Positions 28,274-53,770 of a stretch of DNA of 64,000 nt are shown here, in pieces. The DNA is from an uncultured Holophagales bacterium. GTDB taxonomy: Bacteria > Acidobacteriota > Thermoanaerobaculia > Multivoradales > UBA5704. Made by a program: the position numbers and the translations under genes. Every line of letters begins with the position of its first letter. Positions within the stretch are counted from its first letter, which is position 1. The stretch is taken from the NCBI GenBank assembly GCA_963842525.1, contig CAWJGT010000003.1, positions 1,568,001 through 1,632,000 of the forward strand. The letters run 5' to 3'. The notes under the pieces are model-generated. The model was not told the origin of the DNA and did not search any database. It saw only the letters and a program-made list of their open reading frames with translations.

Positions 28274-29380
28274 TTGAGCCTCGAGGTCCTGGACGCCGAG
28301 CGCGACCCTCAGGCCCTCCTCTGGTTCCTGGCGCTCCCGGAGGCGGTCTATCGCGGCGATCCCTGGTCCAACCCGACCCCCCGGAGCGACGTCCTGACCA
28401 GCCTGCGCCGTCCGGAATTCGCCGGCTCCCGGCGGGTCTGGGTGGCGGTCGAGGGAGAGAGGCCCCTCGCGCGGCTGGTTGCGCTGCGGTCGCCCGCGCT
28501 CAAGGACGAGGCCGGTCTGCCGTACGGCATGATCGGCTTCTTCGAGGCGGTGGACGGCCCGGACGGCAGGGAGGCGACAAGCCGCCTCTTCCGCCAGGCG
28601 GTCGGCTGGCTGCGCGAGACCGGTGCCGGCGAGATCCTGGGCCCGATGGACGGCGACACCTGGCACAGGTACCGGCTCAACGCCGGCCCATTCGACGGGC
28701 CGCCCTTTCTGCTGGAGCCCTGGAACCCGCCGTACTACGAATCGCTCTGGGAAGCCGCCGGGTTCCGGGTGCTGGAGAGCTATTTCTCCACCCGGGTCGA
28801 CGCCGCGGCCGTGGTCGCCGCGCTGGAGCCGAAGCATCGGGCGGCCCTGGCGGCCGGCTACAGGCTGCGGCGGCTGGACATGGGCCGCTTCGAGGACGAG
28901 CTCCGGCGCCTGTATCGCCTGTCGACGGTGATCTTCGCGGGTAATTTCCTCTATACGGAGATCCCCGAGCGGGAGTTCCTCGCCCTCTACGCCGGATCGC
29001 GGCCGATCCTCGATCCGGACCTCGTCTGGTTCGCGAGCACGGCCCAGGGAGAGGATGTCGGGTTCCTCTTCGCCTATCCGGACCGTTTCCGCGCCGTGGC
29101 GGCGATGCGCGGCCGGCGCCATCTCCTCGCCAGGCTCCGGTTCCTCCTGCACCGCGATGAGGTGGACGCGGTCGATTTCAAGACCCTGGGCGTGCTGCCT
29201 GGGCACCGCCGGGCCGGCCTCGCCGCCGCCCTGATGTACCAGGGGCATCGCGTCGCGCTGGAGAAGGGCTACCGGACCGCCAACCACTGCCTGTTCCGCG
29301 AAGGCAACCCCTCCGGCGAGATGGACGGCGGCGCGGGGCGCCTGCTGCGGCGGTATCACCTGTACCGGTACGAAGGATGA
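28274..29380 (+). CDS. GNAT-like (YghO-type) N-acyltransferase
   Basis: GMIGFFEA, ILGPMDGDTWHRYR, EPWNPPYY, acyl-CoA-binding motif KTLGVLPGHRRAGLA. The TTG start is inferred. Confidence 0.75.
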   Translation: MSLEVLDAERDPQALLWFLALPEAVYRGDPWSNPTPRSDVLTSLRRPEFAGSRRVWVAVEGERPLARLVALRSPALKDEAGLPYGMIGFFEAVDGPDGREATSRLFRQAVGWLRETGAGEILGPMDGDTWHRYRLNAGPFDGPPFLLEPWNPPYYESLWEAAGFRVLESYFSTRVDAAAVVAALEPKHRAALAAGYRLRRLDMGRFEDELRRLYRLSTVIFAGNFLYTEIPEREFLALYAGSRPILDPDLVWFASTAQGEDVGFLFAYPDRFRAVAAMRGRRHLLARLRFLLHRDEVDAVDFKTLGVLPGHRRAGLAAALMYQGHRVALEKGYRTANHCLFREGNPSGEMDGGAGRLLRRYHLYRYEG

Positions 29381-29381
29381 G

Positions 29382-31109
29382 ATGAGCCCCTCACCCCCTG
29401 ACCCCCTCTCCCATCCGCACTCCCTTCCGCCCGGGAGAGGGGGAAAACCTCTGGCTCCCCTCTCCCGGGGGCCTGGGGGGGCGGTTGGGAGAGGGGCTGG
29501 GGGTGAGGGGTCCCCTGCCCACAACGTGCTGTCCGTGCTCCAGGAGGTGGCCGGCCGCGTGCCGGACCGCCCGGCCCTGGTGATGCAGGACGGCAGCATC
29601 ACCTTCGCCGGACTCTGGGCGCGGATCGACCGCGTCTCGGCGGGGCTGCGGCAGCGGGGCCTCACGCCGGGCGACCGGGCGGTCGTCATGATCCCCATGT
29701 CGATCGACCTGTATGTGGCCCTGCTGGCGGTCCTGGAGATCGGGGCCGTCGCGGTCTTCGTCGACCCCTGGATCGGCCGCCGCCAGATCGCTGCCTTCGC
29801 GGCCTTCGCGGAGCCGCGCGCCTGGCTCGGAATCCCGGCGAGCCACCTCCTGCGTGTCCTCGCGCCAGGGCTGCGGAGGATCCCGTTGACCGTCACGACC
29901 GGGAGACGGCTCGGCAGCCTGCCGGCCCGGCACACCCTGGCCGAGCTGGAGGAGGAGCACGGCGACGGCCGCGTCGAGGCGGTCGAGCCGGACGACTCCG
30001 CCCTGATCACCTTCACCAGCGGCTCCAGCGGCGAGCCCAAGGGGGCCGACCGCACGCATCGCTTTCTCCTGGCGCAGCACCGCGCCCTGGCCGCCGAGTT
30101 TCCGGCCCGGGAGGGCGACGTGGACATGCCCATGTTCCCGGTCTTCGCCCTCAACAACCTGGCGAGCGGCGTGACCTCGGTCGTGCCTGCCATGGACTTC
30201 CGCCGCGTCGAAAAGGTCGACGCCGCGCGGGTCCTGCGCCAGATGCGGGCGCACCGGGTGACCACCTGCACGGCCTCGCCGCCGTTCTTCGACCGGATCG
30301 CCGAGCGGCTCGCCGCACGCCCTGGGGAGGCCCCACCCCTGCGCCGGCTGCTCACCGGGGGAGCGCCCGTGTCCGACGCGCAGCTCGCGGCCTGGCGCCG
30401 CGTCCTGCCCGCGCCCGAGCTTCTGGTCGTCTACGGCTCGACCGAGGCCGAGCCGGTGGCCCACGTCACGGCCGAGGAGCGGAAGGAGGCCCGCAGCGAC
30501 ATCCGTCCGGCAAGCCCGGGCTTCTGCGTCGGCCGCCCGAGCGACCGGGTGCGCACCAGGGTGATCCACATCCACGACGGCCCCGTCGAGCTGGGGGAGA
30601 GAGGATGGGACGCCTGGGAGCTGCCCGCCGGCAAGATCGGCGAGCTGGCCGTCTCCGGCGATCACGTCTGCCGGAGCTACTACCGGAACCCCGGGGCGGT
30701 GCGGGAGAACAAGATCGCCGGGCCGGGCGGCACGGTCTGGCACCGCATGGGGGACACCGGCTATTTCGACAGCCAGGGGAGGTTCTGGCTGGCCGGTCGC
30801 GTCCATTCGACGATCCGGCGCGGCGGCCGGCCGGTCCACCCGCAGCTCGTCGAGCAGGCCGCCCGGGGAGACGACCGCCGCATCCGCCGCGTGGCCGCCG
30901 TGGGCGTGCCCGATCCCGGGAAGGGAGAGAAGGTCGTCGTGGTCGTCGAGACGGACGCGGGAGCCGGGCTGCGGCAGGACGTCGAGAGCCGGCTGACGGC
31001 AGCGGGGCAGCCGTTCGACGAAATTCGCGTGACCGCCGATCCCCTGCCCGTCGATCCACGCCACAACAGCAAGATTGACTATCGGAGGCTGCGGGAACGG
31101 TTGGTGTAG
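29382..31109 (+). CDS. OleC-like AMP-dependent acyl-activating enzyme
   Basis: ITFTSGSSGEPKG, YGSTEAEP, WHRMGDTGYFD, and C-terminal PVDPRHNSKID typical of the OleC clade. Confidence 0.85.
   Translation: MSPSPPDPLSHPHSLPPGRGGKPLAPLSRGPGGAVGRGAGGEGSPAHNVLSVLQEVAGRVPDRPALVMQDGSITFAGLWARIDRVSAGLRQRGLTPGDRAVVMIPMSIDLYVALLAVLEIGAVAVFVDPWIGRRQIAAFAAFAEPRAWLGIPASHLLRVLAPGLRRIPLTVTTGRRLGSLPARHTLAELEEEHGDGRVEAVEPDDSALITFTSGSSGEPKGADRTHRFLLAQHRALAAEFPAREGDVDMPMFPVFALNNLASGVTSVVPAMDFRRVEKVDAARVLRQMRAHRVTTCTASPPFFDRIAERLAARPGEAPPLRRLLTGGAPVSDAQLAAWRRVLPAPELLVVYGSTEAEPVAHVTAEERKEARSDIRPASPGFCVGRPSDRVRTRVIHIHDGPVELGERGWDAWELPAGKIGELAVSGDHVCRSYYRNPGAVRENKIAGPGGTVWHRMGDTGYFDSQGRFWLAGRVHSTIRRGGRPVHPQLVEQAARGDDRRIRRVAAVGVPDPGKGEKVVVVVETDAGAGLRQDVESRLTAAGQPFDEIRVTADPLPVDPRHNSKIDYRRLRERLV
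29388..29510. repeat. Palindromic element, in frame within the 5' end of the AMP-ligase ORF
   Basis: CCCTCACCCCCTGACCCCCTCTCCC...GGGAGAGGGGCTGGGGGTGAGGGG, 123 bp, translated as PSPPDPLSHP...GRGAGGEG. Confidence 0.88.
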
Positions 31110-31112
31110 GAG

Positions 31113-31282
31113 CCCTCTCCCCCTACCCCCTCTCCCGTGCGTCCCCCTCCCCCCACCCCGAACGGGAGAGGGGGAATGCTGTGGCAGCCGCAGAAGAAAA
31201 GCATTTGGTTGGGGTGGGGGCGCCCTTCTCCCGCTCGGGGTGGGGGGTGGTGGACGCGCGGGGGAGGGGTCGGGGGAGGGGC
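31113..31282. repeat. Diverged two-arm palindromic element, intergenic
   Basis: CCCCCTCTCCCG...CGGGAGAGGGGG hairpin with an imperfect inverted partner. Confidence 0.75.
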
Positions 31283-31292
31283 CGATCCTGCT

Positions 31293-33881
31293 ATGCTTGC
31301 CCCAGCGATGAAATCCATCCTGACCTGCGAGTCGGGCGTGCTGTCGAGGCACCGCCGGTGTGGTGGTCTCCGCCTGCGCCGGCTCCTTGCTTCCTGGTGC
31401 TCGGCCGCCGTCCTGAGCTGCACGGTTGCCTGCGGCGGCCCGGCGGGCAAGGACGCTCTCGGCGGCGGCCCTGTCCTGCACCTCGCCGATCACCTCACGG
31501 AGGCCACGATTGAGAGCGGAGCGTCGCCGGCCGCGGCGCGGCGGGAGCGCGTCTGGGACCTCGCCGTATCGCGGCCCGAGTGGCGGACGGTCTCCGCGGC
31601 CGACGTGCCGCGCCTCGCCGTGGTGGCGCTCGAGCCGGTGGCGGACGGTGTGCGCATGGCTCTCTCGCGGCCGCCGCGCTCCACGAGCCCGATGCTCCTC
31701 GGCGGCATCGCGGTCGACCTCGACAACCTCCGCTTCGACGACTGGGACACCGTCCTGGTGCGAGCCCGTTCGCACGACCGGCTCGGCGGCATCACGGTCT
31801 CCTACAACCTCGACGAGCCGGGCGCGGTGCCCGGCGAGGCCCTGTTCTTCCATGGCGGGCCCTCGGTGCCGCCGGTGTTCTCCGACGGCTCCGTCCAGAT
31901 CTACGCCATCCCGCTGCAACCGCGGCGGGGGCCGCCGCGGCCCGAGACGCTCCGCAGCCTGGGTGTCTTTGCGGCGGCGCCGGCGGAGGTCCATCTGGAC
32001 CTCCTTTCGATCGCGCTCGTGCCGCGCGGCGCGGCCTTCGTCGACCGCTACGGCTCGCGGCCGGTGACGCGCGGGGGCATCACCCGCCAGACCCTCTTCG
32101 CGCACACGCCGGCCAGCCTCACCGTGCGGGTGGCCGCTCCCGACGGAGCACGCCTGGGCTTCGGCCTCTCGGTGGTGCCCGGGGAGACGGTGACGTACCG
32201 GGTCACCGCACAGGCAGGCGGCGGGGAGCGCAAGGCCCTGCTCGCGGAGACGGTCCGCGACGCGGGCGTCTGGGGACAGCGCTCGGTCGACCTCTCCGCG
32301 TGGGGCGGCTCGACCGTCGAGCTGACGCTGGAGGCGGCGAGCGAACGGCCGGGCGCCGTGGCCCTCTGGGGCGCGCCGATCGTCTCCGGGACGGATCGCC
32401 GGCAGAGGGAACAGCGGCCGAACGTCATCTTCTACGTCATCGACGGCGGCGGCGCCGACCTGATGAGCGTCTATGGCTACAACCGCCGCACGACGCCGTT
32501 CCTCGAGCAGCTTGCCGCGGAGGGCGTGGTCTTCGAACGCGCCTACTCCAACTCGACCTGGACCCAGCCCTCCACCGCGTCCTTCATGACCTCCCTCCAC
32601 CACAGCGTGCTCGGCGGCCTGCGGCGCGGCGTGCACTCGACGCCCGTCCCGGTCAAGGCCACGACGATGGCCGAGCACCTGCGGCGCGTGGGATATCAGA
32701 CCGCGGTCTTCACCTCCAACCCCAACTCCGGGCGTGTGATCGGCCTCGAGCGCGGCGTCGACTGGATGGAGGACGAGGAGACCAGGGACCTCTCGACCTC
32801 CTCGGACGAGCTGCACGAGCGGTTCTGGCGATTCCGCGAGCGCTCTCCGGCCGAGCCGTACTGGGTCCATTTCCAGACCACCGACGTGCACGAGCCGAAC
32901 GAGCCGGTGCAGCCCTTCGCCGGCCTCTTCGTCCCACCGGAGGGCCGGCACCAGCTCCACGCCTGGAACAGGCTCCTCTGGCAGGCCGGGGTCTCGGCGC
33001 GCGGCACGACCAGCATCGCCGGGTTCTACGACCTCGCCCTGGACCGTGCCGGGATCGATCGCGAGGCCTATTTCGGCCTGCGCCGCGGCCTCTATGACGA
33101 GACCATGGCGTATCAGGACGACCAGCTCCGGCGGCTGGTCGAGCGCCTCAAGCTGCAAGGTGAATGGGAGAACACGCTGCTCATCATCGCCGCCGACCAC
33201 GGCCATCCGGCGGGGACCTTCGCCCGTTTCGGCCGTGGGCTCTTCGACCCGCAGCCGGAGCCCTGGCAAGGAGCGCTCTTCGACGCCTACAGCACCCGCG
33301 TGCCCTTGATCTTCGTCTGGCCCGGCCGCATCGCCGGAGACCGGCGGATCGCCGGGCCCGTGTCGATGATCGACGTGCTGCCGACCCTCCTCGATCTCCT
33401 CAGGCTGCCGCAGCCGGAGGTCCTCCAGGGACAGTCGCTCGCGCCGCTCCTGCTCGGCCGCGAGATGCAGCTCCGGCCGGTCCTCTTCGACGAGTTCCGG
33501 GTCGACGAGCACGGCGAGCTGGTCGGCAACCTGGAGATCGTCGACGGCCGCTGGGGGGCCTCCTTGGAGATCGGCCCGCACCCACAAGGGGCCGCCGCCA
33601 CGAAAGGCCGCCACGAGGTGCCCGCGGGCGGACGCTGGGGCGCAAGTCATCCATTCTTCCCCGACGCGCCCCGGCTGCTGCTCTACGACGTCTGGGCGGA
33701 CCCCTTCGCCCTGCATGCCGTCAACGACCAGCATCCCGACCTCGTGGAGAAGTACCGGCGGGTGCTGGTGAATCAATGGAAGGCCCACCTGGCCCTGGCC
33801 CAGAGGTTCCAGGAGGCGGGAGAGGTGGCGCTCACCCCCGAGCAGCTCCAGCAGCTCCGGGCTCTGGGATACATTCGGTAG
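31293..33881 (+). CDS. Sulfatase-fold (alkaline phosphatase superfamily) hydrolase/transferase with a long N-terminal region
   Basis: RPNVIFYVID, TTPFLEQLA, AYSNSTWTQPSTAS, IAADHG, VPLIFVWP, SMIDVLPT, and C-terminal LRALGY. Start codon uncertain (31293 or 31308). Confidence 0.85.
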   Translation: MLAPAMKSILTCESGVLSRHRRCGGLRLRRLLASWCSAAVLSCTVACGGPAGKDALGGGPVLHLADHLTEATIESGASPAAARRERVWDLAVSRPEWRTVSAADVPRLAVVALEPVADGVRMALSRPPRSTSPMLLGGIAVDLDNLRFDDWDTVLVRARSHDRLGGITVSYNLDEPGAVPGEALFFHGGPSVPPVFSDGSVQIYAIPLQPRRGPPRPETLRSLGVFAAAPAEVHLDLLSIALVPRGAAFVDRYGSRPVTRGGITRQTLFAHTPASLTVRVAAPDGARLGFGLSVVPGETVTYRVTAQAGGGERKALLAETVRDAGVWGQRSVDLSAWGGSTVELTLEAASERPGAVALWGAPIVSGTDRRQREQRPNVIFYVIDGGGADLMSVYGYNRRTTPFLEQLAAEGVVFERAYSNSTWTQPSTASFMTSLHHSVLGGLRRGVHSTPVPVKATTMAEHLRRVGYQTAVFTSNPNSGRVIGLERGVDWMEDEETRDLSTSSDELHERFWRFRERSPAEPYWVHFQTTDVHEPNEPVQPFAGLFVPPEGRHQLHAWNRLLWQAGVSARGTTSIAGFYDLALDRAGIDREAYFGLRRGLYDETMAYQDDQLRRLVERLKLQGEWENTLLIIAADHGHPAGTFARFGRGLFDPQPEPWQGALFDAYSTRVPLIFVWPGRIAGDRRIAGPVSMIDVLPTLLDLLRLPQPEVLQGQSLAPLLLGREMQLRPVLFDEFRVDEHGELVGNLEIVDGRWGASLEIGPHPQGAAATKGRHEVPAGGRWGASHPFFPDAPRLLLYDVWADPFALHAVNDQHPDLVEKYRRVLVNQWKAHLALAQRFQEAGEVALTPEQLQQLRALGYIR

Positions 33882-33882
33882 C

Positions 33883-34830
33883 ATGGAATCCGTCCTGACC
33901 CGCGAAGCGCCCTTCCTCCGGCGCCTCTCCGCCTACCTCGCCGAGCGGTTCCCGCTCCTCGGGCATGGGATCCTGATCGCCGCCTACTACTCGTCAAACC
34001 AGTTCCTGGCCCGGGTTCTCACCGAGCCAGGGCGGCCGATGCACTACGACCTCTCGTCCCTCTTCGGCGCGTTGACGCTGTTTCTTTTCTTCTTCCACCT
34101 CCGGGTCTTCGACGAGCACAAGGACTATGCGGAGGACCTGGTCCACTACCCGCAGAGGGTCCTGCAGAGCGGCGTCGTCACCCTGCGCGACCTCAAGGTC
34201 CTGGGCGGGATCGCCATCGCGGCAGAGATCGTCCTGTCGGCGATCCGCGGCCCCGCCGCCCTGGTCGCCTGGCTCGCCGCCTTTCTCTTCTCGCTCCTGA
34301 TGCTCAAGGAGTTTTTTGCCCGCGAGTGGCTCAAGCGGCACTTCCTGGTCTATGCCACCAGCCACCTGCTGGTGATGCCGTTGCTCTCCCTGATGGTCTT
34401 CAGCTTCGCGACCGGCCGCTGGCCGTGGGAGGCGCCCCCCTGGTACTGGATGTATGCCTGGGTGGGCTTCTTCGTGACCTTCAACTGGGAGGTCTCGCGC
34501 AAGATCCGCGCACCCGAGGACGAGATCGAAGGAGTGGACAGCTACACCCGCATCTTCGGCACCTACGGGGCGGCCTACGTGGTGCTGCTCATCCGCGTGA
34601 TCGACACCGCGCTGGTGGCCCTGGTCGGCTGGCACCTCGGCGTGTCGGTCTGGTTCTACGCCGCGCTCGTGGCGCTTTTCCTGGTCTGCCTGATCGGTTT
34701 CTTCCAATATCGCTTCCAGACCAACCGCAAGACCGCGAAGCGGATGGAGACCTACGCCGGCATGTACATCATCGCCTTCGATCTGATCCTGGCCTTCGAG
34801 ATCGCCAGGCTCTACGGGATGGAGCTGTGA
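33883..34830 (+). CDS. UbiA-family prenyltransferase-like membrane protein
   Basis: Multiple TM helices; acidic motifs LRVFDEHKDYAED..YPQR and EVSRKIRAPEDE..GVDSY. Confidence 0.78.
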   Translation: MESVLTREAPFLRRLSAYLAERFPLLGHGILIAAYYSSNQFLARVLTEPGRPMHYDLSSLFGALTLFLFFFHLRVFDEHKDYAEDLVHYPQRVLQSGVVTLRDLKVLGGIAIAAEIVLSAIRGPAALVAWLAAFLFSLLMLKEFFAREWLKRHFLVYATSHLLVMPLLSLMVFSFATGRWPWEAPPWYWMYAWVGFFVTFNWEVSRKIRAPEDEIEGVDSYTRIFGTYGAAYVVLLIRVIDTALVALVGWHLGVSVWFYAALVALFLVCLIGFFQYRFQTNRKTAKRMETYAGMYIIAFDLILAFEIARLYGMEL

Positions 34831-37502
34831 GCGCGGCCCCTCACCCCCCGACCCCCTCTCCCAACCGCCCTCCCAGCCCACCGGGAGAGGGGGAGCTTGT
34901 CATTGCCGATCCCCGAGCTGCTCTCGGCGTGCCTTCGCTGCTCGGCGGCAAGGCGGCGAACCTCGCGCGCCTCGAATCGATCGGGATGCCGGTGCCGCCT
35001 TGGTATGCAATCACAACGGAGGCATTCCGCCGTTTCCGTGATGTGCCGCTGCCGCCTGAGCTGGAGCGCGAGATCGAGCGCGCTCATGCTGCACGGATTC
35101 CTGACGGGAAGCTCGTGGCGGTGCGTTCCTCTGCGGTGGGGGAGGATGCAGCGGGGGAGTCCTTCGCAGGAATCCATGACAGTTTCCTTTTCGTCCGTGG
35201 CTGGGACGATCTGCTGAACGCGATCCGCGGCGTCTGGGCTTCGGCGTACAGCGAGCGCGCCCTCGCCTACCGGCGGGCCAGGGGGATCCCTCTCGACAGC
35301 ATCGCCGTGGCGGTCGTGGTCCAGGAGATGATCGATCCTCGATCGAGCGGAGTCCTCTTCACGGCCAACCCGAACAACGGCAGTGTCCACGAAATGGTGA
35401 TCAGCTCCCTCTGGGGAGCCGGCGAAGGGCTGGTCAGCGTGGGGCTGGACGCCGATACCTACATCGTCGAGAAGGACACGCTGGAGGTGACCGAGCAGCT
35501 CGCGGTCAAACGGGAGCAGATCGTTCTCGACCGTGATGCCGGCCGCGGCGTGGTGCGGACCGAGGTCCCTTCCGATCTGCAGGAGCGAAGCAGCCTCACA
35601 TCGGAGGAAATTGCCGAGCTGGCCCGCACCGGGCTCGCGATCGAAAGGTTGTATCGCCGGCCGCAGGACATCGAATTCGCCTTTGATTCGGAAGGCCGCC
35701 TCGCCATCCTCCAGGCGCGGCCGGTGACCACGGTCGAGGAGGACGGCCCCGCGGCCGGCCATAGGCTGATCTGGGATAACTCGAACATCATCGAGAGCTA
35801 TTCGGGCGTGACCTCGCCGATGACCTTCAGCTTCATCCGGCGGGCCTATTCGATCGTCTACCACTGCTTTGCCGAGGTCATGGGCATCACGCCGAAGGTC
35901 GTGCGGGCAAATCGCGACGTCTTCGACAACATGCTCGGCCTGTTCCGAGGCCAGGTCTACTACAACCTCCTCAACTGGTACCGTCTGGTCCGCCTCTTCC
36001 CCGGGTTCAACTACAACAAGAAATTCATGGAATCGATGATGGGCGTGCGCGAGAGCCTGCCGGAAGAGGCCGAGCCTGCGCCGGTCGGAGCCCTCCAGCG
36101 CTACACCGTCGAGCTGCCCGCCCTGCTGCGCCTGGTTGGCCGTTCAGTCACCAACTTCCTGCGCATCCGCCGCATCGTCGGCGATTTTCAGAGCCATTTC
36201 CGGGAGCACTACAGCCGCTGGTCGCAGATGGACTTCCGCTCGATGGCCCCGCACGAGCTGGCCGCGCTCTACCGCGAGATGGAGGAGAAGCTCCTCTGGG
36301 AATGGAAAGCGCCGATCATCAACGATTTCTTTGTGATGGTTTTCTATGGCACCCTCAAGAAGCTCTGCACCGCGTGGTGCGGTGACGAAGCCGGGACCCT
36401 CCAGAACGACCTGCTTGCCGGAGAAGGAGGAATCGAAAGCACCGAGCCGACGCGGATGCTCCTCCGTCTCGCCGCGCAGGCGCGCCAAAGGCCTGAGCTA
36501 TGCCAGCTCCTCCTGGAGCATCCACCAGAGGATCTGGTGACAGCCATCCCGGCCGATCCCCGTTTCGCCGACTTCGCGGCCGAGATCGCCCGCTATCTCG
36601 ACCTCTACGGATTCCGTGGGGTCAACGAGCTGAAGCTGGAGGAGCCCTCGGTCAAGGACCGTCCCGCCTTCCTCTATCAGATCCTCCGCAATTATCTGAG
36701 CGGAGAAGCCCTCGATGTCGCAGCCATGGACGAACGGGAGCGCCGCATCCGCCAGGAGGCCGAGAAGCGAGCCTTCGCTTCCATCAAGAAGAGCCTCCTG
36801 CCACGCACCACGATCTTCCGCCGCGTCCTGAACAACGCCCGTCTCGGCGTCAAGAACCGCGAGAACATGCGTTTCGCCCGCACCCGCATCTATGGCCTCC
36901 TGCGCGAGCTCCTCCGCGCCATCGGCGAACACTTCACTCAGGAAGGCATCCTCGAAGCCCCTGCCGACATCTTCTATCTGACCATCGACGAGGTCTGGGA
37001 CTTCATTCGGGGCCGCGCGGTGACCACGGACCTGAAAGTCCTCGTCGCCCTCCGCCGCGAGGAATTCGACGCCTATCGCCGCGAGGCCGAGAAGATGCCG
37101 GCTGACCGCTTCGAAACCTTCGGCCTGCCCTACCACCGCAACCGCTACCGGGGCCGCCCGCGTCCCGTTGCCGTGGACGCCGAAGGTGTCCTACGCGGCA
37201 CCGGCTGCTGCGCGGGCGTTGTGACCGGTCCGGTCAAGGTCCTCCGCACTCCCACTGAAGACGCCCGCCTCGACGGCGAGATCCTGGTCGCCGAAAGGAC
37301 CGATCCGGGTTGGGTGCCGCTCTATCCGTCCGTCTCAGGTCTTCTCATCGAGCGTGGGAGTATCCTTTCGCACTCCGCGATCGTTGCGCGGGAAATGGGC
37401 ATTCCTACTATCGTCGGCATCGCCGGGTTGGTGGAGACGCTGGAGACCGGGCAGATCGTCACGATGGACGGCGCGGCGGGGACGGTGCGACCCCGCCGTT
37501 GA
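34827..37502 (+). CDS. PEP-utilising dikinase-type phosphotransferase (rifampin-phosphotransferase architecture)
   Basis: ATP-grasp motifs GGKAANL, AVRSSA..ED...SFAG and QARPVT; central domain; C-terminal His-swivel TDPGW...GSILSHSAIVAREMGIP. GTGA overlap with the UbiA stop. Confidence 0.9.
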   Translation: MSAAPHPPTPSPNRPPSPPGEGELVIADPRAALGVPSLLGGKAANLARLESIGMPVPPWYAITTEAFRRFRDVPLPPELEREIERAHAARIPDGKLVAVRSSAVGEDAAGESFAGIHDSFLFVRGWDDLLNAIRGVWASAYSERALAYRRARGIPLDSIAVAVVVQEMIDPRSSGVLFTANPNNGSVHEMVISSLWGAGEGLVSVGLDADTYIVEKDTLEVTEQLAVKREQIVLDRDAGRGVVRTEVPSDLQERSSLTSEEIAELARTGLAIERLYRRPQDIEFAFDSEGRLAILQARPVTTVEEDGPAAGHRLIWDNSNIIESYSGVTSPMTFSFIRRAYSIVYHCFAEVMGITPKVVRANRDVFDNMLGLFRGQVYYNLLNWYRLVRLFPGFNYNKKFMESMMGVRESLPEEAEPAPVGALQRYTVELPALLRLVGRSVTNFLRIRRIVGDFQSHFREHYSRWSQMDFRSMAPHELAALYREMEEKLLWEWKAPIINDFFVMVFYGTLKKLCTAWCGDEAGTLQNDLLAGEGGIESTEPTRMLLRLAAQARQRPELCQLLLEHPPEDLVTAIPADPRFADFAAEIARYLDLYGFRGVNELKLEEPSVKDRPAFLYQILRNYLSGEALDVAAMDERERRIRQEAEKRAFASIKKSLLPRTTIFRRVLNNARLGVKNRENMRFARTRIYGLLRELLRAIGEHFTQEGILEAPADIFYLTIDEVWDFIRGRAVTTDLKVLVALRREEFDAYRREAEKMPADRFETFGLPYHRNRYRGRPRPVAVDAEGVLRGTGCCAGVVTGPVKVLRTPTEDARLDGEILVAERTDPGWVPLYPSVSGLLIERGSILSHSAIVAREMGIPTIVGIAGLVETLETGQIVTMDGAAGTVRPRR
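34837..34895. repeat. Single arm of the palindromic element, in frame in the phosphotransferase N-terminus
   Basis: CCCCTCACCCCCCGACCCCCTCTCCC...CCGGGAGAGGGGGAG, translated PHPPTPSPNRPPSPPGEGE. Confidence 0.85.
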
Positions 37503-37571: not shown

Positions 37572-39377
37572 CTACTCGAACTCCAACACCAACCGCGGAG
37601 CGCGGGTTGGAATACTGGCTGCGAGGGCACCTTCTCTGGACACGTACTCCACCTTGCCTGCCTGTCCTTCCGAGTCTTTTTTGACCAGCCATCCGTAGTC
37701 GGCACCGGCGAGAACGTCGCTTGTTACATCCCAACTCACTTCTCCAGACAGGCCGTTCGTGTGTACGACAGGCGCGCCGGTCGAAGCAGCGAAGGTCCCG
37801 CCATCCCACAGCATGGGGCAGTTGGGGGTCTGGTTCGCGATGTCGAGGTCGGTAGCGCACGCCCAGGTGACGCCGGGGCCGGTGCCGCGGGTGTTGCCGC
37901 CGACGGTCCAACCGTTGCCTTCGGACCATGGCTCGAGCAGACGGTGGGCGCTCATTGGGCGCCCGGAACTGCCCCAGTTGTCCGTGAGCTGCGCGATCGT
38001 GAGCACCAGCGTGGCTCTTACGAGACCTACGATCGAAACACCCGATAGGTCGAAGCGTACGAGGATTCGGTTCTTTCCTGAGCTTTGGATGCGGAGCGAG
38101 TCGTTGGCACCCTCATTCGTGTTGGGTGCACCCTGGCGCAGGAAGCTATCGGCGATGGCGGTAAGCTCGAGCGGCGGCGGAGGTCCGCCGTCGTTGCGAA
38201 CGAAGGCGACTTTTTCGTTCACGATCAGCGCGTCCGAGTCACCGTCGCCATCGACGTCGCCCACAACCACCGACTCGACGTTGCCCCCTGCGCCGTGGTC
38301 GAAGGTGAGAAGGTACGGATCGGCAATAGTCTGGGGCGTCGCTCCGAGCCCGCCCATCAGCGGATCGCCATACAGAATGCTCAGATCTCGGGTGTTGGCG
38401 TTGTCCGTTATGAGGTCTGGCCAGCCATCGTTGTTGAAGTCCGCGACTTCTGGGTCGCGAGGATGTGCCCCGGGGCTTGACTGAGTGGGCACGGCTCCGG
38501 GAGCGAGCAAGCCGTCGTAGATGTAGAGATGGTTAGTCGAGCTGTGCGGCACGTCAGCATTGGTGATGAGATCGGCGTCACCATCGCGGTCGAAGTCGGC
38601 CAGGGTGCCGAAGGTTGACCGGCTTGCGTCGCCAGCATCTAGCGTGAAGCTCGAAAAGCTTCGCCCTCCGAGGTTCGTAAAGACTGTGACGGAGTTCGGT
38701 CCGGTATCGTGGGTGCCGCCGAAAACGTCCAAGTCACCGTCGCCGTCATAGTCTCCGACCCAGGCTCGAACGAGGTCGTTTGGGGAAGTTGGAACGCTAG
38801 TGGAAGAGGTGAAGCGCAGCGCCGGGTTCGCGTCGTTCCAGAGGACGTGCAGTTTGCCAGGTGCCGTAAAGCCAAGGTCCGTCGTGACTGCATCGGGTAG
38901 GGAGTCGCCGTCGAGGTCCGCGAAGGCCAAACCGTAGCCGGCATCAACGTCTGGTGTCGGATACTCGGCGACTGTCCGCCCACCGGGAACCGAGTAGAGG
39001 ACGGTAAGGATTCCTTGCTGATTGTTTGCTCGGTTCCAGGTCACGATATCTGGAGTGCCGTCGCCGTCGACATCAGCGACCTGCGGCGAGAGGTATTCTT
39101 GCCCTCTCGGCAGCGGAGTAGCGTCAAGCAGCGTGTATCCCCCCGACCCGCTGATCTGGGAGACCTCCAGCACGTTCAGTGGAAATCGAACAATCAGAAC
39201 CTCGTTTTGACCGTCGCTGTCGAGGTCTCCCAGTCCGCCGGTGTAGCGGATGCCCGACCCTGGATTCACGGGCAACACTGTGAAGGGCACAGTCTGCGAC
39301 ATTAATGTGGCCGGCAGCATTGCGGTGATGAACAGACTGCGGAGCAGAATTCGTAACTTCAGCATGTCGTCTCTCAT
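37572..39377 (-). CDS. Secreted FG-GAP/VCBS-repeat beta-propeller protein with a C-terminal DNRLRE-like domain
   Basis: Signal-like N-terminus; about seven DxDGDG-type repeats; C-terminal ADSFLRQGAPNTNEG...RILVRFDL...SRE...PRLVL; GGAGG upstream of ATG 39377. Confidence 0.85.
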   Translation of the reverse strand: MRDDMLKLRILLRSLFITAMLPATLMSQTVPFTVLPVNPGSGIRYTGGLGDLDSDGQNEVLIVRFPLNVLEVSQISGSGGYTLLDATPLPRGQEYLSPQVADVDGDGTPDIVTWNRANNQQGILTVLYSVPGGRTVAEYPTPDVDAGYGLAFADLDGDSLPDAVTTDLGFTAPGKLHVLWNDANPALRFTSSTSVPTSPNDLVRAWVGDYDGDGDLDVFGGTHDTGPNSVTVFTNLGGRSFSSFTLDAGDASRSTFGTLADFDRDGDADLITNADVPHSSTNHLYIYDGLLAPGAVPTQSSPGAHPRDPEVADFNNDGWPDLITDNANTRDLSILYGDPLMGGLGATPQTIADPYLLTFDHGAGGNVESVVVGDVDGDGDSDALIVNEKVAFVRNDGGPPPPLELTAIADSFLRQGAPNTNEGANDSLRIQSSGKNRILVRFDLSGVSIVGLVRATLVLTIAQLTDNWGSSGRPMSAHRLLEPWSEGNGWTVGGNTRGTGPGVTWACATDLDIANQTPNCPMLWDGGTFAASTGAPVVHTNGLSGEVSWDVTSDVLAGADYGWLVKKDSEGQAGKVEYVSREGALAASIPTRAPRLVLEFE

Positions 39378-39422
39378 CTTTTTCCCTCCGTTGCTGAGGA
39401 GAACGTCAGCAAGGAGGTGCAC

Positions 39423-39439
39423 AGCAACACCCATACCAG
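39423..39439 (-). promoter_or_regulatory. Putative sigma54 (-24/-12) promoter of the FG-GAP gene
   Basis: Minus strand reads CTGGTATGGGTGTTGCT with exact GG-N10-GC spacing, about 45 bp upstream of the ATG and just downstream of a sigma54-activator gene. Confidence 0.7.
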
Positions 39440-39536
39440 AGTAGACGCCCTGCTGGCTCAGGGGCGGCATGGCTAGCCGCTTGGCGATGACCGCGAAGCA
39501 GAGTGGGCAGGGGTGCGAAGCAGGTTGGCGGCTGGC

Positions 39537-41321: not shown

Positions 41322-41324
41322 AGG

Positions 41325-43974: not shown

Positions 43975-44177
43975 GGATGGAAGACCGTCAGCAGGTTTCG
44001 CCCCTCGCCCGGAGGTGAGGCCCCCCGGCCCCTGACCCCAGCCAACCCTCCCAGGATCAGCCGCAAGATTTCCTGCATGGCGTTCGGCGAGGCAATGCTG
44101 CCGTCCCAATGCAGAACATGATACTCCGCAAGCATCTCGGGAATGGACCTCGGACTTGGCGCCTTAAGGCGAGCTCT

Positions 44178-44850: not shown

Positions 44851-44860
44851 ACCATAGGCA

Positions 44861-45636
44861 TCAGGAGGGGGCGAGGCAGGCTGGCAGCTCCGCCACCGAA
44901 TCCAGCACCACATCCGCCGCCTCCTGCGCCCGCTCCTCATCCTGCGGCCGGTACTTGCCGGTCCTCACCGCCACCCCCATCATCCCGACCTCCCGGGCTC
45001 CCGCGACATCCGACTCCAGGTCGTCCCCGACCACCGCGATCCGGTCGAAGGGGAGGCCGAGCTCGCCGCGGCGGCCTCGAAGAAAGCGCTGCTCGGCTTG
45101 CCGACCAGGGTGGCCGTCTTGCCGCTGCCATACTCCAGGGCGGCGACGAACGGACCGGCGTCCAGGTTCAAACCTCCTTCGGTCTTCCAGTAGCGGTTGC
45201 GCTGGATCGCCAACAGCTCGGCGCCATCCATCAGATTCCGGAAGGCCTGGTTGAGGAGCGGAAACGTCCACTCCTCGCCGAGGTCCCCGACCACGACGAC
45301 CTCAGGACCGTGATTCACGACCTCGAGGCCCTCGAATTCCCCCCACGTCGCCTGAGCCAGGAGGAGCTGGACCTTGCGGACACCCCGGTCACGAAGCCAG
45401 CGGGCAGCCGCGGCGGGAGCGGACAGGATCTCGCCCGGCTCGGCCGCGATGCCCATGTCGCGCAACCGCTCGGCGAGACCGGTCCGGGGACGCCGCGTGG
45501 TGTTGGTGGTGAAGCGGAAGGGGATGCCCCGCCGCCGTAGCTCCGCGAGAGCCGTGGCGGCTCCGGGAATGGCGCGGTCTTCCTGATAGACCGTGCCGTC
45601 GAGGTCGAGGAGAAGGCCCGCGATCACTTGACGCAA
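44861..45636 (-). CDS. HAD-IIA hydrolase (LHPP/HDHD2-like)
   Basis: LLDLDGTVY, FTTNTT, VGKPS, then VVGDDLESDV after a frameshift near 45065. Confidence 0.88.
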
Positions 45637-45669
45637 ATCGTCACTTCAATGCCACGGAGGCTCCGGTGA

Positions 45670-45990: not shown

Positions 45991-46129
45991 TGCCGAGATC
46001 GAGAATCGGATCAACTGCCGGGCTCAACAAGATCAAAATCTGGTCGCCTTCCTTACGGATCTCTTCCTTGTGCCCTTCGAGCAGATCGAGAGGGATCACC
46101 AGACTGTCGTCGGTTACTTTGGCTCTCAT
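45991..46129 (-). pseudogene. Truncated AbrB-like antitoxin-type small gene
   Basis: MRAKVTDDSLVIPLDLLEG..EIRKEGDQILI..DPILDLG, ATGA-coupled to the Uma2 stop and cut exactly where the Uma2 fragment begins. Confidence 0.55.
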
Positions 46130-46731
46130 AGTTGGACTTGGCGAGGGAGCAGATCCTCGACCGCAATCGAGGCGTCGGGCCGGGCAAACGGTGAGATCCG
46201 CTGGCCGCGGCGGAAGACGAGCTTCGTGCGGTATTCGCCGCCCTTGGGATCCCGGAGAACCTCGACGGCATCGCGGCGCAGGTTGAGGATCCAGTACTCC
46301 GGGATGCCCGCCAGCGCATAGATCCTTGGTTTGCGCTTCCGATCGTGGTGTTGGGAGGTGTCCGTGACTTCTACCACCAGAAGTGCTGCGGAGGGGTGAT
46401 GGTCCACGTAATCGTCCGGCTCTCCTGGAACCACGGCGAGGTCCGGCTCTGGCATGGAATCGTCCCCGGAGATCAGCGGTGACTGCGAGTGGATGTCGTA
46501 TCCGGATCCGAAGGCTGCTTCGAGCGCACGGCGGGCCTTGCGGACACCTACCGCGTGCCGGCTCTTCTGCGGGCTCATGTCGTAGATGACCCCGTCCACC
46601 AGCTCGAGCCGCTTTTCCGGGGCGAACACCCCCGCCTCGGCCATCTGCTCATACTCCTCCCGCGTCCAGCGATGGACCTCGACCTCCTCCTCGTCCGTCC
46701 AGTCCTGAACCTTGACCTCAGGAAGCGCCAT
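46126..46731 (-). CDS. Uma2-family (PD-(D/E)XK) endonuclease-like protein
   Basis: ELVDGVI..MSP, PEPDLAVV, LVVEV, YALAGIPEYWILNL. Confidence 0.92.
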   Translation of the reverse strand: MALPEVKVQDWTDEEEVEVHRWTREEYEQMAEAGVFAPEKRLELVDGVIYDMSPQKSRHAVGVRKARRALEAAFGSGYDIHSQSPLISGDDSMPEPDLAVVPGEPDDYVDHHPSAALLVVEVTDTSQHHDRKRKPRIYALAGIPEYWILNLRRDAVEVLRDPKGGEYRTKLVFRRGQRISPFARPDASIAVEDLLPRQVQL

Positions 46732-48225: not shown

Positions 48226-48822
48226 TCATTTGCGAGGGAGCAGGTCCGCGACGGCAATCGAAGCGTCGGGACAGAACAGCGGCGACACCGAATCTCCCGC
48301 TTTCAGAACCTTCTTGGAGGTATAGGCTCCCCCGACAGGCTTCCTGTAGACCTCGAGCTGGATTTTCACGAGGTTGGCGATCCAGCACTCCGGAATGCCA
48401 GCATGGGCATAGAGGTGCCTTTTGCGTTGGCGGTCGTGGTAGAGAGAGCTGTCCGCAACCTCTACGATCAGCAGGGCAGAGGAAGGATGATGGTCGAGAT
48501 AGTCCCAGCCGCTTCCGGCCACGACGGCCACGTCCGGCTCGGGCTCGCTATCCTCGGACAAGACGAGAGGAACCTGGACGCGTAGGAAGGAACGCGCCGG
48601 CAGGATGGCCCGGAGGGCCTCCGAATGGGCCCAGACGACGGTGGCGTGCCGGCTCTTCTGCGGGCTCATGTCGAAGATGACCCCGTCCACCAGCTCGACC
48701 CGCTTTTCCGGGGCGAACACCCCCGCCTCCGCCATCTGCTCATATTCCTCCCGCGTCCAGCGATGGACCTCGACCTCCTCCTCGTCTGTCCAGTCCTGAA
48801 CCTTGACCTCAGGAAGCGCCAT
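48226..48822 (-). CDS. Uma2-family endonuclease-like protein
   Basis: ELVDGVI..MSP, EPEPDVAVV, LIVEV, YAHAGIPECWIANL; GAGGAG ribosome-binding site. Confidence 0.92.
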   Translation of the reverse strand: MALPEVKVQDWTDEEEVEVHRWTREEYEQMAEAGVFAPEKRVELVDGVIFDMSPQKSRHATVVWAHSEALRAILPARSFLRVQVPLVLSEDSEPEPDVAVVAGSGWDYLDHHPSSALLIVEVADSSLYHDRQRKRHLYAHAGIPECWIANLVKIQLEVYRKPVGGAYTSKKVLKAGDSVSPLFCPDASIAVADLLPRK

Positions 48823-48873
48823 GGCGATACTCCTCGTTGCGGAAGGCTACCGCACAGTTCTCTTCGCAGGACA

Positions 48874-50248
48874 CTACCATCCCCACTGCGGATCCCACGC
48901 GGGGGCCAGCCCCAACACCTGCAAGCCTAGCACCGCGCCGCCTGCGACGAGGCTCAGCAGGAACCGCCAGGCGGTCCAATCGCGGGGCCGATCGGATCGG
49001 ATCGCGCAGCTCGATCGCGACGTTGACCAGCGAGAGGATCATGACGACTCCGCCGACCGCGAGGAGGCCGGTGATGGGGACGTGGCGGAGGAGGAGCCAG
49101 GGGACGAGGGCGGTCAGGGCCGTGCCGAGGATGCCCACTCCGAAGGCGGCAAAGGCGCGGGGGAGGGCGGGCAGCCGCTCCAGCCGGAAGACTCCGGTGT
49201 CCAGCGCGAAGGCGAAGACCGCGGCGCTGGCGGCGAGGTAGGGGCCGTAGAAGTCGGCCGGACGGTGCAACCCGTTGGCCAGCGCGAGCATGGCAAAGGG
49301 TGGCAGCAGCGCGCGGCTCACCGTCCGCACCTTGACTCCCGCGGCATGGCGGGGCGGAGCGAAGCGGCGCCAGGCGGCGAGGTACCCCGCGAAGCCGAGG
49401 AATGCCGGCAGCGCCCAGAGCCAGCTCCCCAGCGACCAGGCGCCGTAGGCGAAGAGGATGAAGGTGATCGTGCCGCCCACGTTGAGAGTCGGGATACGCC
49501 AGGCCACGAGGGTCACGGCGAGGCAGATCGCCAGGAGGGAGAGGTTCTGGAAGACCACCTCGGAGAGCGGCTTCGAGGTGATCTTGCCGAGGATCACCAC
49601 CACGGCCAGCGGCACGAACAGGTTGTCCGCCCCTTCGAGCGAGATCGCTTCGAACCCGGTCACCAGCGCCGCCACGAGCGTCGCCGCCAGGACACAGACC
49701 GGGCGCGGCAGGTCGGTCAGCAGCAGCACCGGCAGGTGGATCGCCAGGAAGGCCAGGACGAAGAAGACCAGCGATCCCTCCAGGCTTTTGGTCTCGTTCT
49801 CCACTTCATACCGGATCACTCCGTAGCGGCTGCCGATGAGCGCCGCAAAGGCATCGGCGACCGCCAGGACCAGGACCGCGGCAAGGTACAGCCACGGCCT
49901 TCCCAGGGTGAGGACGAAGACCAGGAAGACCGCCAGCGGGTAGTACTCGGCCCCTCGGCTCCGTCTCTGCACCCCGTGCAGGCTCTTCAGGAACCCGAGC
50001 TTCGCGCCGGCCACGAAAATGCCTGTGAGGGGCAGGGCCAGCGCCGCCACCACCCAGGGGGAGCGGACGAGGAACGGGAAGAACAGGCAGGCGATCCCGC
50101 CTCCGAGATGGACCAGCTTCCGAGTGTGCTCCGGCTTCGGATCACCGAAACGCCGCCACAGCTCGGCGATCACCAGGAGGGAGAGGAAGGCCGTCCCAAG
50201 GATTGCCGCCCCGCGAAGGTCTCCCGGGTAGATCCAGCCGCCGCTCAC
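48874..50248 (-). CDS. Phytol/dolichol kinase-like (CTP-transferase family) polytopic membrane protein
   Basis: EHTRKLVH, LAVADAFAALIG, KSLEGSL, GADNLFVP. After a frameshift near 48985 the frame continues WRFLLSLVAGGAVLGLQVLGLAPAWDPQWGW to a stop at 48874. Confidence 0.8.
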
Positions 50249-51342
50249 GCGGTGACCTCTTCGAGCATGAAGGCGCTATAGAAGAAGGCCAGGTCCCGGG
50301 CGAAGAGCTCGGCGGCCTCGGCGTCCAGCGAGCGGACCCGGTCCGGGTGCGCCACCGCCAGCCGGCGCGGCACGAGCATGTTCCAATAGGCGAACCGGGC
50401 GCCCGGGCGCGCCGTCTCCAGCAGCCGTCCATAGATTGCGGCGCTCGTCGCCGGGTCGATGTACTCGAAGAGGTCCGACAGGTTGAAGCCGTCGAAGCCC
50501 TCGCCGCGATGGGCTAGAGCCGCCTCTTCGATCGAGCCCTCGAAGAGCACGAGCCGGTCGAGGTTCTTCTTGACGTCGGCGAAGACCTCGGCCTGGAGAT
50601 AGCGGGGGAGGGAGCGTCCGAAGTTGCCGGTGAGGATGTATTCGATGTACGGGTTGGCGTGGATCGGGAGGACGGTCAGCGCATAGCGCGCCCGCCCCAG
50701 GATGCGCTCGGCCACCGATCCCTCGACATAGCGGAAGAGCTCCGGGTCGCGGCCCAGCCGGCCCATGGCGAAGCGGCTGAAGAAGATTCGGAAGAGAAGC
50801 CGCCAGCGCAGGTTGTTCCAGGTCTCCTCGTAATAGCGGACCCGCCCCGACTCGTCGCGTTCTTCGAGCAGCCCCAGGACCGTCTTCCGCCGGTGGATCA
50901 GGGGGAGGACCCACTCGCGGAAGAGGCCGAAGTAGGCCTCGAACTTGCCATGATGGACGATGCCGTCCGCCACGTCGTCGAGGCGCTCCCGCCAGAATTC
51001 GCGGGCGCCTTCGGAGAGGTCCCGCTCCAGGGCTTCATAGACCGGCCGCCGGTCCGGGCTCTTGCGCATCCCCAGGAACGCCAGAGCCTCGCCATGGGAG
51101 AGGCGCCGGATCGCCGCGCGCTTGAGCTCGACCAGGGCGATCTGCGCCGGCGAGAGGTCCGCGGCCACGACCTCGGCCCCGTCGGCGAGCAGGGCGAAGC
51201 TGTTGTCCCCGGCCGAGGCGATGGAGAGGAAACGCCGCCCCGGGCCGGGCCGCAGAGCATCGCACAGCACGCCCGCGTCCTCCCACACGTTGGCGTAGCG
51301 GATCAGGTCGAAACGGACGCGGTCCTCGATGCGCTCGGTCAT
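50245..51342 (-). CDS. DUF3419 / BtaA-like SAM-dependent transferase
   Basis: IRYANVWEDA, LSIASAGDN, DLSPAQIALVELK, GKFEAYF, FNLSDLFEY, AYWNMLVPR. Confidence 0.85.
   Translation of the reverse strand: MTERIEDRVRFDLIRYANVWEDAGVLCDALRPGPGRRFLSIASAGDNSFALLADGAEVVAADLSPAQIALVELKRAAIRRLSHGEALAFLGMRKSPDRRPVYEALERDLSEGAREFWRERLDDVADGIVHHGKFEAYFGLFREWVLPLIHRRKTVLGLLEERDESGRVRYYEETWNNLRWRLLFRIFFSRFAMGRLGRDPELFRYVEGSVAERILGRARYALTVLPIHANPYIEYILTGNFGRSLPRYLQAEVFADVKKNLDRLVLFEGSIEEAALAHRGEGFDGFNLSDLFEYIDPATSAAIYGRLLETARPGARFAYWNMLVPRRLAVAHPDRVRSLDAEAAELFARDLAFFYSAFMLEEVTA

Positions 51343-52276: not shown

Positions 52277-53770
<1,494 letters not shown>

Follow-up and report, generated by a model that had tools for sequence, protein, structure and literature searches.

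Here we describe a candidate lipid-biosynthetic gene cassette in a soil acidobacterium of the class Thermoanaerobaculia, an uncultured Holophagales bacterium (genome G000, 9.95 Mb, ~70% G+C), identified in a 64,000-nucleotide stretch of DNA referred to as the window (G000:C3:1568001-1632000). The cassette is encoded in two blocks that face each other, convergent across 11.3 kb: block A, encoding a GNAT-like protein, a ligase, a UbiA protein and a dikinase, and block B, encoding a DUF3419 protein and a kinase-like membrane protein. Judged by gene neighbourhoods in other genomes, the two blocks are halves of one conserved biosynthetic cassette and functionally linked, and this link is well supported. 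As to its product, we think it somewhat better than even (probability roughly 0.55) that the cassette builds a membrane aminolipid, through phosphorylation of a lipid alcohol, UbiA-catalyzed coupling and formation of an N-acylated aminocarboxypropyl head group. An earlier note on this DNA had placed the named genes in two converging blocks, and Pfam and NCBIfam scans find them there; of the limits it gave for block B, the start at 51342 stands, while the end lies at 48809 and not at 48874. Genes were called from third-position G+C together with the Pfam and NCBIfam scans, for which 40 open reading frames (ORFs) of the window were used. The cassette genes are as follows.

Positions 28274-29380, + strand: GNAT-like protein, block A; TTG start, with homologues that begin at equivalent residues.
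Positions 29382-31109, + strand: ANL ligase, block A (PF00501, E 7e-56).
Positions 33883-34830, + strand: UbiA protein, block A (PF01040, 51 bits against a cut-off of 34.2).
Positions 34827-37502 (alternative start 34929), + strand: dikinase with PPDK_N and C-terminal swivel-His domains, block A.
Positions 48809-50248, - strand: kinase-like multi-pass membrane protein of 479 aa, block B; GTG start.
Positions 50245-51342, - strand: DUF3419 protein, block B (PF11899, E 2.4e-57).

The evidence for the linkage comes from other phyla and from related genomes. An alignment of ten members of the kinase-like family served to collect 79 loci from species-representative genomes, and for 22 loci the ORFs on either side were clustered to find recurring neighbours. 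Of the 72 loci for which sufficient upstream DNA is available, 68 have the DUF3419 gene as the same-strand neighbour immediately upstream of the kinase-like gene, and in one library protein (P0404) a single frame runs from the C-terminal part of DUF3419 into the kinase-like domain. In the window the DUF3419 stop overlaps the GTG start of the kinase-like gene (GTGA), and the two genes are predicted to be translationally coupled. In 37 of the loci the sequence extends for 8.5 kb or more on each side; one or more block A genes are present in 25 of these, and three or more in 20. Block B has the GNAT, ligase, UbiA and dikinase genes as neighbours in Verrucomicrobiota, Gemmatimonadota, Planctomycetota, Myxococcota, Desulfobacterota, Pseudomonadota and Bacillota. 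Beyond Acidobacteriota, an uninterrupted run of all six genes occurs in records labelled Kiritimatiellae, Victivallales, Verrucomicrobiota, Gemmatimonadota and Planctomycetota, and also in Syntrophobacteraceae, Persicimonas, 'Proteobacteria' and Ca. Tritonobacter records. The kinase-like gene and the dikinase are convergent in 33 and co-directional in 7 (e.g. L066, L080, L081 and L084) of the 40 loci that hold both, a count that includes three duplicates (L002=L007, L003=L033 and L004=L021); in the 7, all six genes point the same way. A seven-gene co-directional operon in the order reductase-UbiA-dikinase-DUF3419-kinase-GNAT-ligase is carried by two strains in culture, Brevibacillus laterosporus B9 (CP011076.1) and Roseinatronobacter sp. 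S2 (plasmid CP121116.1). The cassette enzymes are 40-69% identical across at least 8 phyla. A literature search found no paper that joins these genes and no assigned product, in agreement with the earlier note; the one relevant paper concerns the reductase FcrA, discussed below.

Within the family, sampled as 41 genomes (G000 and 40 relatives), a search with UbiA returns a single orthologue in each of 11 genomes (73-100% identity) and no other match at E ≤ 0.001, and one with DUF3419 returns strong orthologues (65-100% identity) in the same 11 genomes plus G015. This sole exception is 81% complete, and has an 85%-identical C-terminal fragment of the dikinase at a contig end. Three weak DUF3419 matches (E ~1e-4, 38-40% identity over ~80-100 residues) were rejected as orthologues. 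UbiA and DUF3419 share a contig in six genomes and are 4.5-15 kb apart in five (G000, G001, G004, G019 and G023). Because each is represented by a single orthologue in the 9.95-Mb genome, so that the chance of their lying within 16 kb is ~0.3%, and because the arrangement recurs in other genomes, the proximity of the blocks is more than chance. A tblastn search of the window proteins against the relatives' loci delineates two conserved units, GNAT-ligase-UbiA-dikinase facing DUF3419-kinase-like(-HAD), with 0-4 kb between them; in G023 they abut directly. In an even sample of the phylum (201 genomes), this type of UbiA is found only in G000 and G154, with DUF3419 close by in both (2.6 kb from UbiA in G154). 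A search of sequencing runs for the block A DNA listed no RNA run, and one soil DNA run contained a small share of the words sampled from it.

Two observations weigh against the linkage, and lend some support to the idea of two independent pathways joined in this family by no more than synteny: in G010, UbiA and DUF3419 lie 486 kb apart on one contig, and in 12 of the 37 fully flanked loci, all 12 of them Acidobacteriota records, the blocks stand apart. A whole-genome search of 15 genomes with a DUF3419-kinase pair and no block A nearby (those of 11 of the 12 loci lacking a block A gene, the twelfth being G010, and four others) found a UbiA orthologue in 15 of 15. In one of them (G237, the genome of L010) it is a 105-residue remnant with an in-frame TGA (G237:C36:302588-302902), ~17 kb from an intact DUF3419-kinase pair, and this may represent decay of block A in one lineage. 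The co-occurrence in every genome tested, bar the 81%-complete G015, and the single co-directional operons in distant phyla make independence of the two blocks highly improbable. The earlier note had proposed that the blocks belong together, and had named a lack of co-occurrence or clustering in other genomes as the finding that would count against it; because of the co-occurrence in the 41-genome sample, the 79 loci and the single operons, the opposite is found.

Turning to the block B proteins, the DUF3419 protein (365 aa) is assigned on its sequence to the BtaA family of S-adenosylmethionine (SAM)-dependent transferases (PF11899, covering residues 12-358), as a member of the cassette. Its identity is 42-62% to the cluster-type orthologues of other phyla and only 25-29% to rhizobial BtaA-type genes; a sequence search of the PDB returned nothing useful. 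The cassette resembles the BtaA/BtaB pathway of diacylglyceryl trimethylhomoserine (DGTS) synthesis in having a DUF3419/BtaA-family enzyme with a class-I SAM-binding N-terminal part, which presumably moves the 3-amino-3-carboxypropyl group of SAM to a lipid hydroxyl. It differs in its partners (kinase, UbiA, dikinase, GNAT and ligase) and in the fate of the amine, which is probably acylated or formylated rather than methylated. No BtaB-type methyltransferase domain was found among the window ORFs scanned, and none recurred in the flanking ORFs of the 22 loci; the same window scan found no OleA/B/D-type domain, so that the earlier note was right in listing btaB and oleABD as missing. Both in the window and in many related loci, the gene immediately upstream of DUF3419 encodes a purine nucleoside phosphorylase; this may be plain synteny, or may be linked to disposal of the methylthioadenosine formed in aminocarboxypropyl transfer.

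The kinase-like protein is predicted from its structural model to have two domains, an N-terminal CdsA/polyprenol-kinase-like domain (residues ~1-225) followed by a domain of ~6 transmembrane helices (residues 230-420). With 409 clusters at E < 1e-30, the family is a large one. Pfam gives no match to the window protein itself, even at E 10, and a single one of the 16 relatives scanned, P0503, exceeds the PF01148 cut-off of 24 bits, with 28.7. The label 'kinase' is thus given because of its relatives, the closest of which are named phytol, dolichol or polyprenol kinase in source databases, and because of its fold. TmCdsA (4q2e) is the top match of the model (predicted local distance difference test score, pLDDT, 86) both in Foldseek (E 0.034) and in the VIA wide search (Z 7.8, 168 residues), and CarS gives Z 5.9; these scores are weak for a helical protein. 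The C-terminal domain (230-420) has no structural match above the helical-bundle background. The ESM Atlas places the protein among unnamed clusters, with faint DUF92 and CTP_transf_1 hints. Invariant residues of the family (alignment A1) include E29, E40, R43, K44, H47, D132, A135, G139, E200, D208 and N209, among others, in the N-terminal domain, and these presumably resemble the polyprenol-kinase signature. The polyprenol-kinase-like label used in the earlier note is therefore backed by the relatives' names and, with weak scores, by the CdsA-like fold, and not by a Pfam match of the protein's own. In Thermoanaerobaculia loci, Uma2-family genes are repeatedly found just downstream of the kinase-like gene.

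Among the block A enzymes, the GNAT-like protein (368 aa) is predicted to be a tandem-GNAT N-acyltransferase belonging to the cassette. Its PF00583 score (18.7 bits) is just below the cut-off of 20.7, and the assignment draws on its AlphaFold model (pLDDT 92.5, built from 27 aligned sequences), for which the best Foldseek matches are the tandem-repeat GNATs 7q3a, 5kf1, MshD (1ozp) and 2wpw (E 1.8e-11 to 1.9e-9, template modelling score 0.55-0.6). The matched enzymes (MAB_4324, glucosamine N-acetyltransferase, MshD and the clavulanate tandem GNAT) N-acylate amines. GNAT orthologues lie within the cluster in other phyla, and in five loci that lack it a Formyl_trans_N protein is encoded in its place, suggesting N-acylation of an amine as a conserved step. 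The BtaA-like enzyme is the sole amine-introducing enzyme of the set.

The ligase is classed by sequence as an ANL-superfamily acyl-CoA ligase of the cassette. Its closest model is NF006754 ('fatty acid CoA ligase family'), whose cut-off of 478 bits it misses with a score of 434, and its nearest solved relatives are CoA ligases and adenylation domains of non-ribosomal peptide synthetases (NRPS). The earlier note had called it OleC-like; an OleC beta-lactone synthetase is ruled out by the scores (300 against a cut-off of 900 for the OleC model, and 232 against 850 bits), and Pfam detects no thiolase, hydrolase or short-chain dehydrogenase/reductase neighbours in the window. The ligase gains a role in the cassette because GNAT enzymes and FcrA, a reductase discussed below, both use acyl-CoA.

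The UbiA gene (315 aa) is predicted to encode a UbiA-superfamily intramembrane transferase, as a cassette member, with a first Asp-rich motif formed by D77, D81 and D85. It reaches no curated equivalog (PRK13592, 110 against 443 bits; PRK05951, 98 against 239; ChlG, 18 against 313) and falls among generic UbiA clusters in the ESM Atlas. Its sole solved match in a PDB sequence search is digeranylgeranylglyceryl phosphate (DGGGP) synthase 6m31 (E 0.73), which provides a likeness to archaeal ether-lipid synthesis; the distance from every curated equivalog (at best 110 against 443 bits) sets the cassette enzyme apart from both this pathway and phytol salvage.

The dikinase, whose gene follows that of UbiA in every locus, is identified by sequence as an RPH/PigC-type member of the cassette, with ATP-grasp, middle and C-terminal swivel-His domains (PF01326, E 5e-75; PF00391, E 9e-24) and the phospho-His motif. 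Only PPDK_N and the mobile His domain were found by Pfam, with no phosphoenolpyruvate (PEP)/pyruvate TIM-barrel domain. Assignment as PEP synthase or pyruvate phosphate dikinase (PPDK) was rejected on the lack of this barrel and on TIGR01418 (283 against 740 bits). The protein falls just short of the NF004881 cut-off (875 against 883 bits). It shares with RPH and PigC/RedH the ATP-grasp, substrate and C-terminal swivel-His architecture without the TIM barrel of PEP synthase, and differs in scoring far under the curated cut-offs (303 against 999 for the RPH model NF041857, and 355 against 1300 for PigC) and in its constant pairing with a UbiA gene. Two of its matches, 5fbs and 5hv1, are listed as 'phosphoenolpyruvate synthase', and we take them to be rifampicin phosphotransferases.

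In most other phyla, the set is headed by a reductase that, from its active-site residues, is predicted to be of the FcrA type and derived from 3-hydroxy-3-methylglutaryl (HMG)-CoA reductase (HMGR). An HMGR homologue (PF00368, E ~1e-105 to 1e-113) is present in 24 of the 79 loci and in both cultured strains, as the earlier note had mentioned for similar gene sets; its gene is found just upstream of DUF3419 in 23 loci, and in L056 it occupies the far end of block A. FcrA is an HMGR-derived fatty acyl-CoA reductase that keeps the catalytic residues while three residues of the HMG pocket (Ser684, a conserved pocket Lys and Leu862) are replaced, as described in the excerpts of the FcrA paper used here (PMC11948995). 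The linked homologues likewise keep the catalytic residues and have an acidic residue, a hydrophobic residue and Phe at the three positions (24 of 24 at the first two, and 23 of 23 with data at the third). A search of G000, as the earlier note had advised, finds three HMGR homologues, one of them (HMGR2) in a mevalonate operon. The pocket residues compare as follows.

The 24 linked homologues: position 684, Glu (23) or Asp (1); pocket Lys replaced by V, I, M or L (24); position 862, Phe (23 of 23 with data).
G000 HMGR2 (mevalonate operon): position 684, Ser; pocket Lys; position 862, Leu.
G000 HMGR1 (N-terminal PF25653 domain): position 684, Glu; pocket Ile; position 862, Trp.
G000 HMGR3: position 684, Phe; pocket His; position 862, Phe.

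The linked enzymes differ from FcrA in having Phe where the excerpts report Trp (PMC11948995), and none of the four scanned has the N-terminal PF25653 domain found in the FcrA-like HMGR1 of G000. A further difference lies in context, since FcrA is described in those excerpts in wax-ester synthesis, and not with UbiA, BtaA-like or kinase partners (PMC11948995). The FcrA pocket of the linked reductases indicates that their product is likely a fatty alcohol rather than mevalonate, and the lipid tail made by the cassette may therefore be a fatty alcohol rather than an isoprenoid.

The chief alternative concerns this tail. In an isoprenoid version of the pathway, the kinase-like protein would phosphorylate a prenol (phytol, geranylgeraniol or a polyprenol), the dikinase would make the diphosphate, and UbiA would prenylate an acceptor that the BtaA-like enzyme and GNAT then decorate, forming a bacterial analogue of phytol salvage. 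The cassette and phytol salvage (VTE5, VTE6 and UbiA-family phytyl transfer) do share a CdsA-clan lipid-alcohol kinase, a second phosphorylation and a UbiA transfer; they differ in that the second kinase of the cassette is an RPH-like dikinase and not VTE6/DUF92, and in that the alcohol may derive from a fatty acid. The prenol kinase names given to the relatives of the kinase-like protein favour an isoprenoid, as do the preference of UbiA chemistry for allylic diphosphates, the lack of a linked FcrA in the window's cassette, and the mevalonate operon and polyprenyl synthase of G000. That operon (L090, G000:C9:1815001-1835000) encodes a canonical-pocket HMGR, a GHMP kinase and a diphosphomevalonate-decarboxylase-like protein, with a polyprenyl synthase nearby, indicating that this acidobacterium has at least part of the mevalonate route. 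On the other side, the reductases linked to the cassette in the 24 loci and two cultured strains have a pocket of the FcrA rather than the HMG type, the clustered ORFs around the 22 loci include no further recurring mevalonate or prenyl-synthase gene, and the ligase would serve the GNAT step only. We regard the isoprenoid version as possible and clearly less probable than the aminolipid reading given at the outset. The isoprenoid emphasis of the earlier note is accordingly weakened by the pocket of all 24 linked homologues, and keeps the support of the prenol kinase names.

The other two HMGR homologues of G000 have neighbours of their own. HMGR1 (L089, G000:C34:476001-496000) is directly followed by an ABC1/UbiB-type atypical kinase. 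The divergent HMGR3 (L091, G000:C34:639001-659000) lies beside two ketoacyl synthases, a PlsC/DAGAT-type acyltransferase, an amine-oxidase-type flavoprotein and an RPE65 oxygenase, and may belong to a distinct system for ether lipids or polyenes; in several relatives the HMGR3-type open frame is ~800-860 aa long, which may indicate a fusion.

Under the preferred reading, a pathway to a membrane aminolipid would run as follows. The ligase would make long-chain acyl-CoA, feeding both the reductase and the GNAT. The FcrA-type reductase would turn acyl-CoA into the lipid alcohol, a step that in this bacterium would fall to an unlinked enzyme such as HMGR1, with a prenol as the alternative substrate for what follows. 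The CdsA-type kinase would phosphorylate the alcohol at the expense of CTP, and the dikinase would probably add a further phosphate. UbiA would then couple the activated lipid to an acceptor, giving an ether-type or phospho-linked anchor, to which the BtaA-like enzyme would add a homoserine-type (3-amino-3-carboxypropyl) head group from SAM. Finally, the GNAT would N-acylate the head-group amine with acyl-CoA, and the product would be a membrane aminolipid.

Besides the separated blocks discussed above, several points weigh against this reading. Every chemical step in it is drawn from family membership, and the kinase-like assignment rests on scores that are weak for a helical protein (Foldseek E 0.034, Z 7.8). 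The identity of only 25-29% to rhizobial BtaA-type genes means that the acceptor of the cluster-type DUF3419 protein, and even the group that it transfers, are presumed only. The window's cassette includes no reductase gene. HMGR1 orthologues are present in nearly all genomes of the family, with or without the cassette, so that HMGR1 is not specifically tied to it, and with its mevalonate operon G000 has a prenol substrate equally available. The weakest step appears to be the UbiA reaction, which would take place on a non-allylic substrate; UbiA enzymes characteristically use allylic prenyl diphosphates or phosphoribosyl pyrophosphate (PRPP), and we know of no precedent for UbiA transfer of a saturated alkyl diphosphate. 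A prenol substrate, or a PRPP-type donor with a lipid phosphate as acceptor, would be the alternatives at this step.

A bolder and more specific version of the aminolipid reading is that the cassette constitutes a fatty-acid-fed bacterial counterpart of archaeal ether-lipid synthesis, in which a fatty alcohol would be phosphorylated twice (by the CdsA-type kinase and then by the His-swivel dikinase) and joined by UbiA through an alkyl ether bond, giving N-acyl-homoserine-headed lipids in at least 8 phyla, soil Acidobacteriota included. We hold this version to be doubtful, slightly more so than the isoprenoid alternative. If true, it would define a new class of ether-linked lipids, and alkyl ether formation is not known for the UbiA superfamily.

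The distribution of the cassette also bears on whether its product is a membrane component at all. It is patchy (11 of 41 relatives, and 2 of 201 genomes in the phylum sample), plasmid-borne in Roseinatronobacter and decayed in one genome, and RPH/PigC-type dikinases are known, going by NCBIfam names, from secondary metabolism and drug modification. These features would suit a diffusible or secreted specialised metabolite, such as an N-acyl-homoserine-type signal or a lipidated small molecule. Such a product is nevertheless unlikely in our view, as two cassette proteins out of six belong to lipid-type families of polytopic membrane enzymes, the flanks of the 22 loci contain no recurring NRPS, polyketide synthase or exporter, and the 50-69% identity across phyla fits a conserved structural product.

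Compared with these other loci, the cassette in the window is a split, reductase-less and sulfatase-interrupted Thermoanaerobaculia variant. The remaining genes within and around it are as follows.

Positions 26640-28265, + strand: protein of 541 aa with no Pfam family, just upstream of the GNAT gene.
Positions 31137-33881, + strand: sulfatase-fold protein (PF00884, E 3e-39, residues 428-755).
Positions 37572-39470, - strand: FG-GAP repeat protein (Pfam), between the blocks.
Positions 39537-41321, - strand: sigma-54 activator with an FHA domain (Pfam), between the blocks.
To position 44109, - strand: Ser/Thr kinase (Pfam), between the blocks.
Positions 44980-45636, - strand: HAD-IIA phosphatase (TIGR01458, 142 bits against a cut-off of 176).
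Positions 46126-46731 and 48226-48822, - strand: two Uma2-family genes (putative endonuclease).
Positions 51375-52370, - strand: purine nucleoside phosphorylase, directly upstream of DUF3419.

The sulfatase-fold gene, which the earlier note had counted in the set, is a lineage-specific insertion and not a cassette member. It is found in none of the 32 loci (29 distinct) that hold both ligase and UbiA, and the gap between these two genes is < 300 nt in all 32, compared with 2774 nt in the window, where the sulfatase gene fills it. The sulfatase protein probably starts near 31293, with a signal- or lipobox-like stretch after Met residues ~53-59, and is probably secreted or lipoprotein-like. About 22 sulfatase-family genes are present in G000. 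A role as an LtaS/EptA-type lipid-head-group transferase was rejected: the protein lacks an N-terminal membrane domain and scores best against the arylsulfatase and choline sulfatase models, and the gene is not a conserved part of the cluster. Five Thermoanaerobaculia-type loci (L013, L014, L016, L017 and L055) have another sulfatase-like gene (26-31% identical to that of the window), placed on the opposite strand between the phosphorylase and DUF3419.

In the window, ~11 kb of unrelated genes that are not members of the cassette have split it in two; the FG-GAP, sigma-54 activator and Ser/Thr kinase genes are absent from the inter-block gap of the relatives. The HAD-IIA gene is found downstream of the kinase-like gene in four of five relatives' clusters and in 16 of the 79 loci, all of Thermoanaerobaculia type, and appears to encode a lineage-specific accessory of block B. 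The 541-aa protein is kept upstream of GNAT in G004, G010 and L031 (61-78% identity) and not in other phyla.

The block A genes, which the earlier note had described as tightly coupled, are so only in part, as three of their junctions (GNAT/ligase, ligase/sulfatase and UbiA/dikinase) are occupied by palindromes resembling repetitive extragenic palindromic (REP) elements. Each consists of an 11-base C-rich arm, 18-27 bases and then the reverse complement of the arm. The window contains seven copies, all at gene junctions (23314-23353, 23470-23509, 29402-29443, 31126-31174, 34852-34893, 53786-53825 and 53959-53998), and 14 half-sites compared with 0.34 expected. The ligase and dikinase genes abut their upstream genes only if these elements are translated, and their starts may instead be GTG 29526 and 34929. 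Translated copies of the element were matched elsewhere in the G000 genome (C12 and C3:780324).

At the other end of the window lies a large NRPS cluster with condensation, adenylation and peptidyl carrier protein domains (3231-21301, - strand). Three overlapping ORFs in different frames (9815-10924, 10536-11468 and 11200-13947) share one of its adenylation domains between them, which suggests frameshifts or assembly errors.

Taken at the level of annotation, the cassette reassigns many genes now labelled 'orphan HMG-CoA reductase', 'phytol kinase', 'PEP synthase' or '4-hydroxybenzoate polyprenyltransferase'. It may mark an unrecognised class of bacterial membrane lipids, and may bear on how ether-type or amino-acid-headed lipids are made in bacteria, including the abundant uncultured Acidobacteriota of soils.

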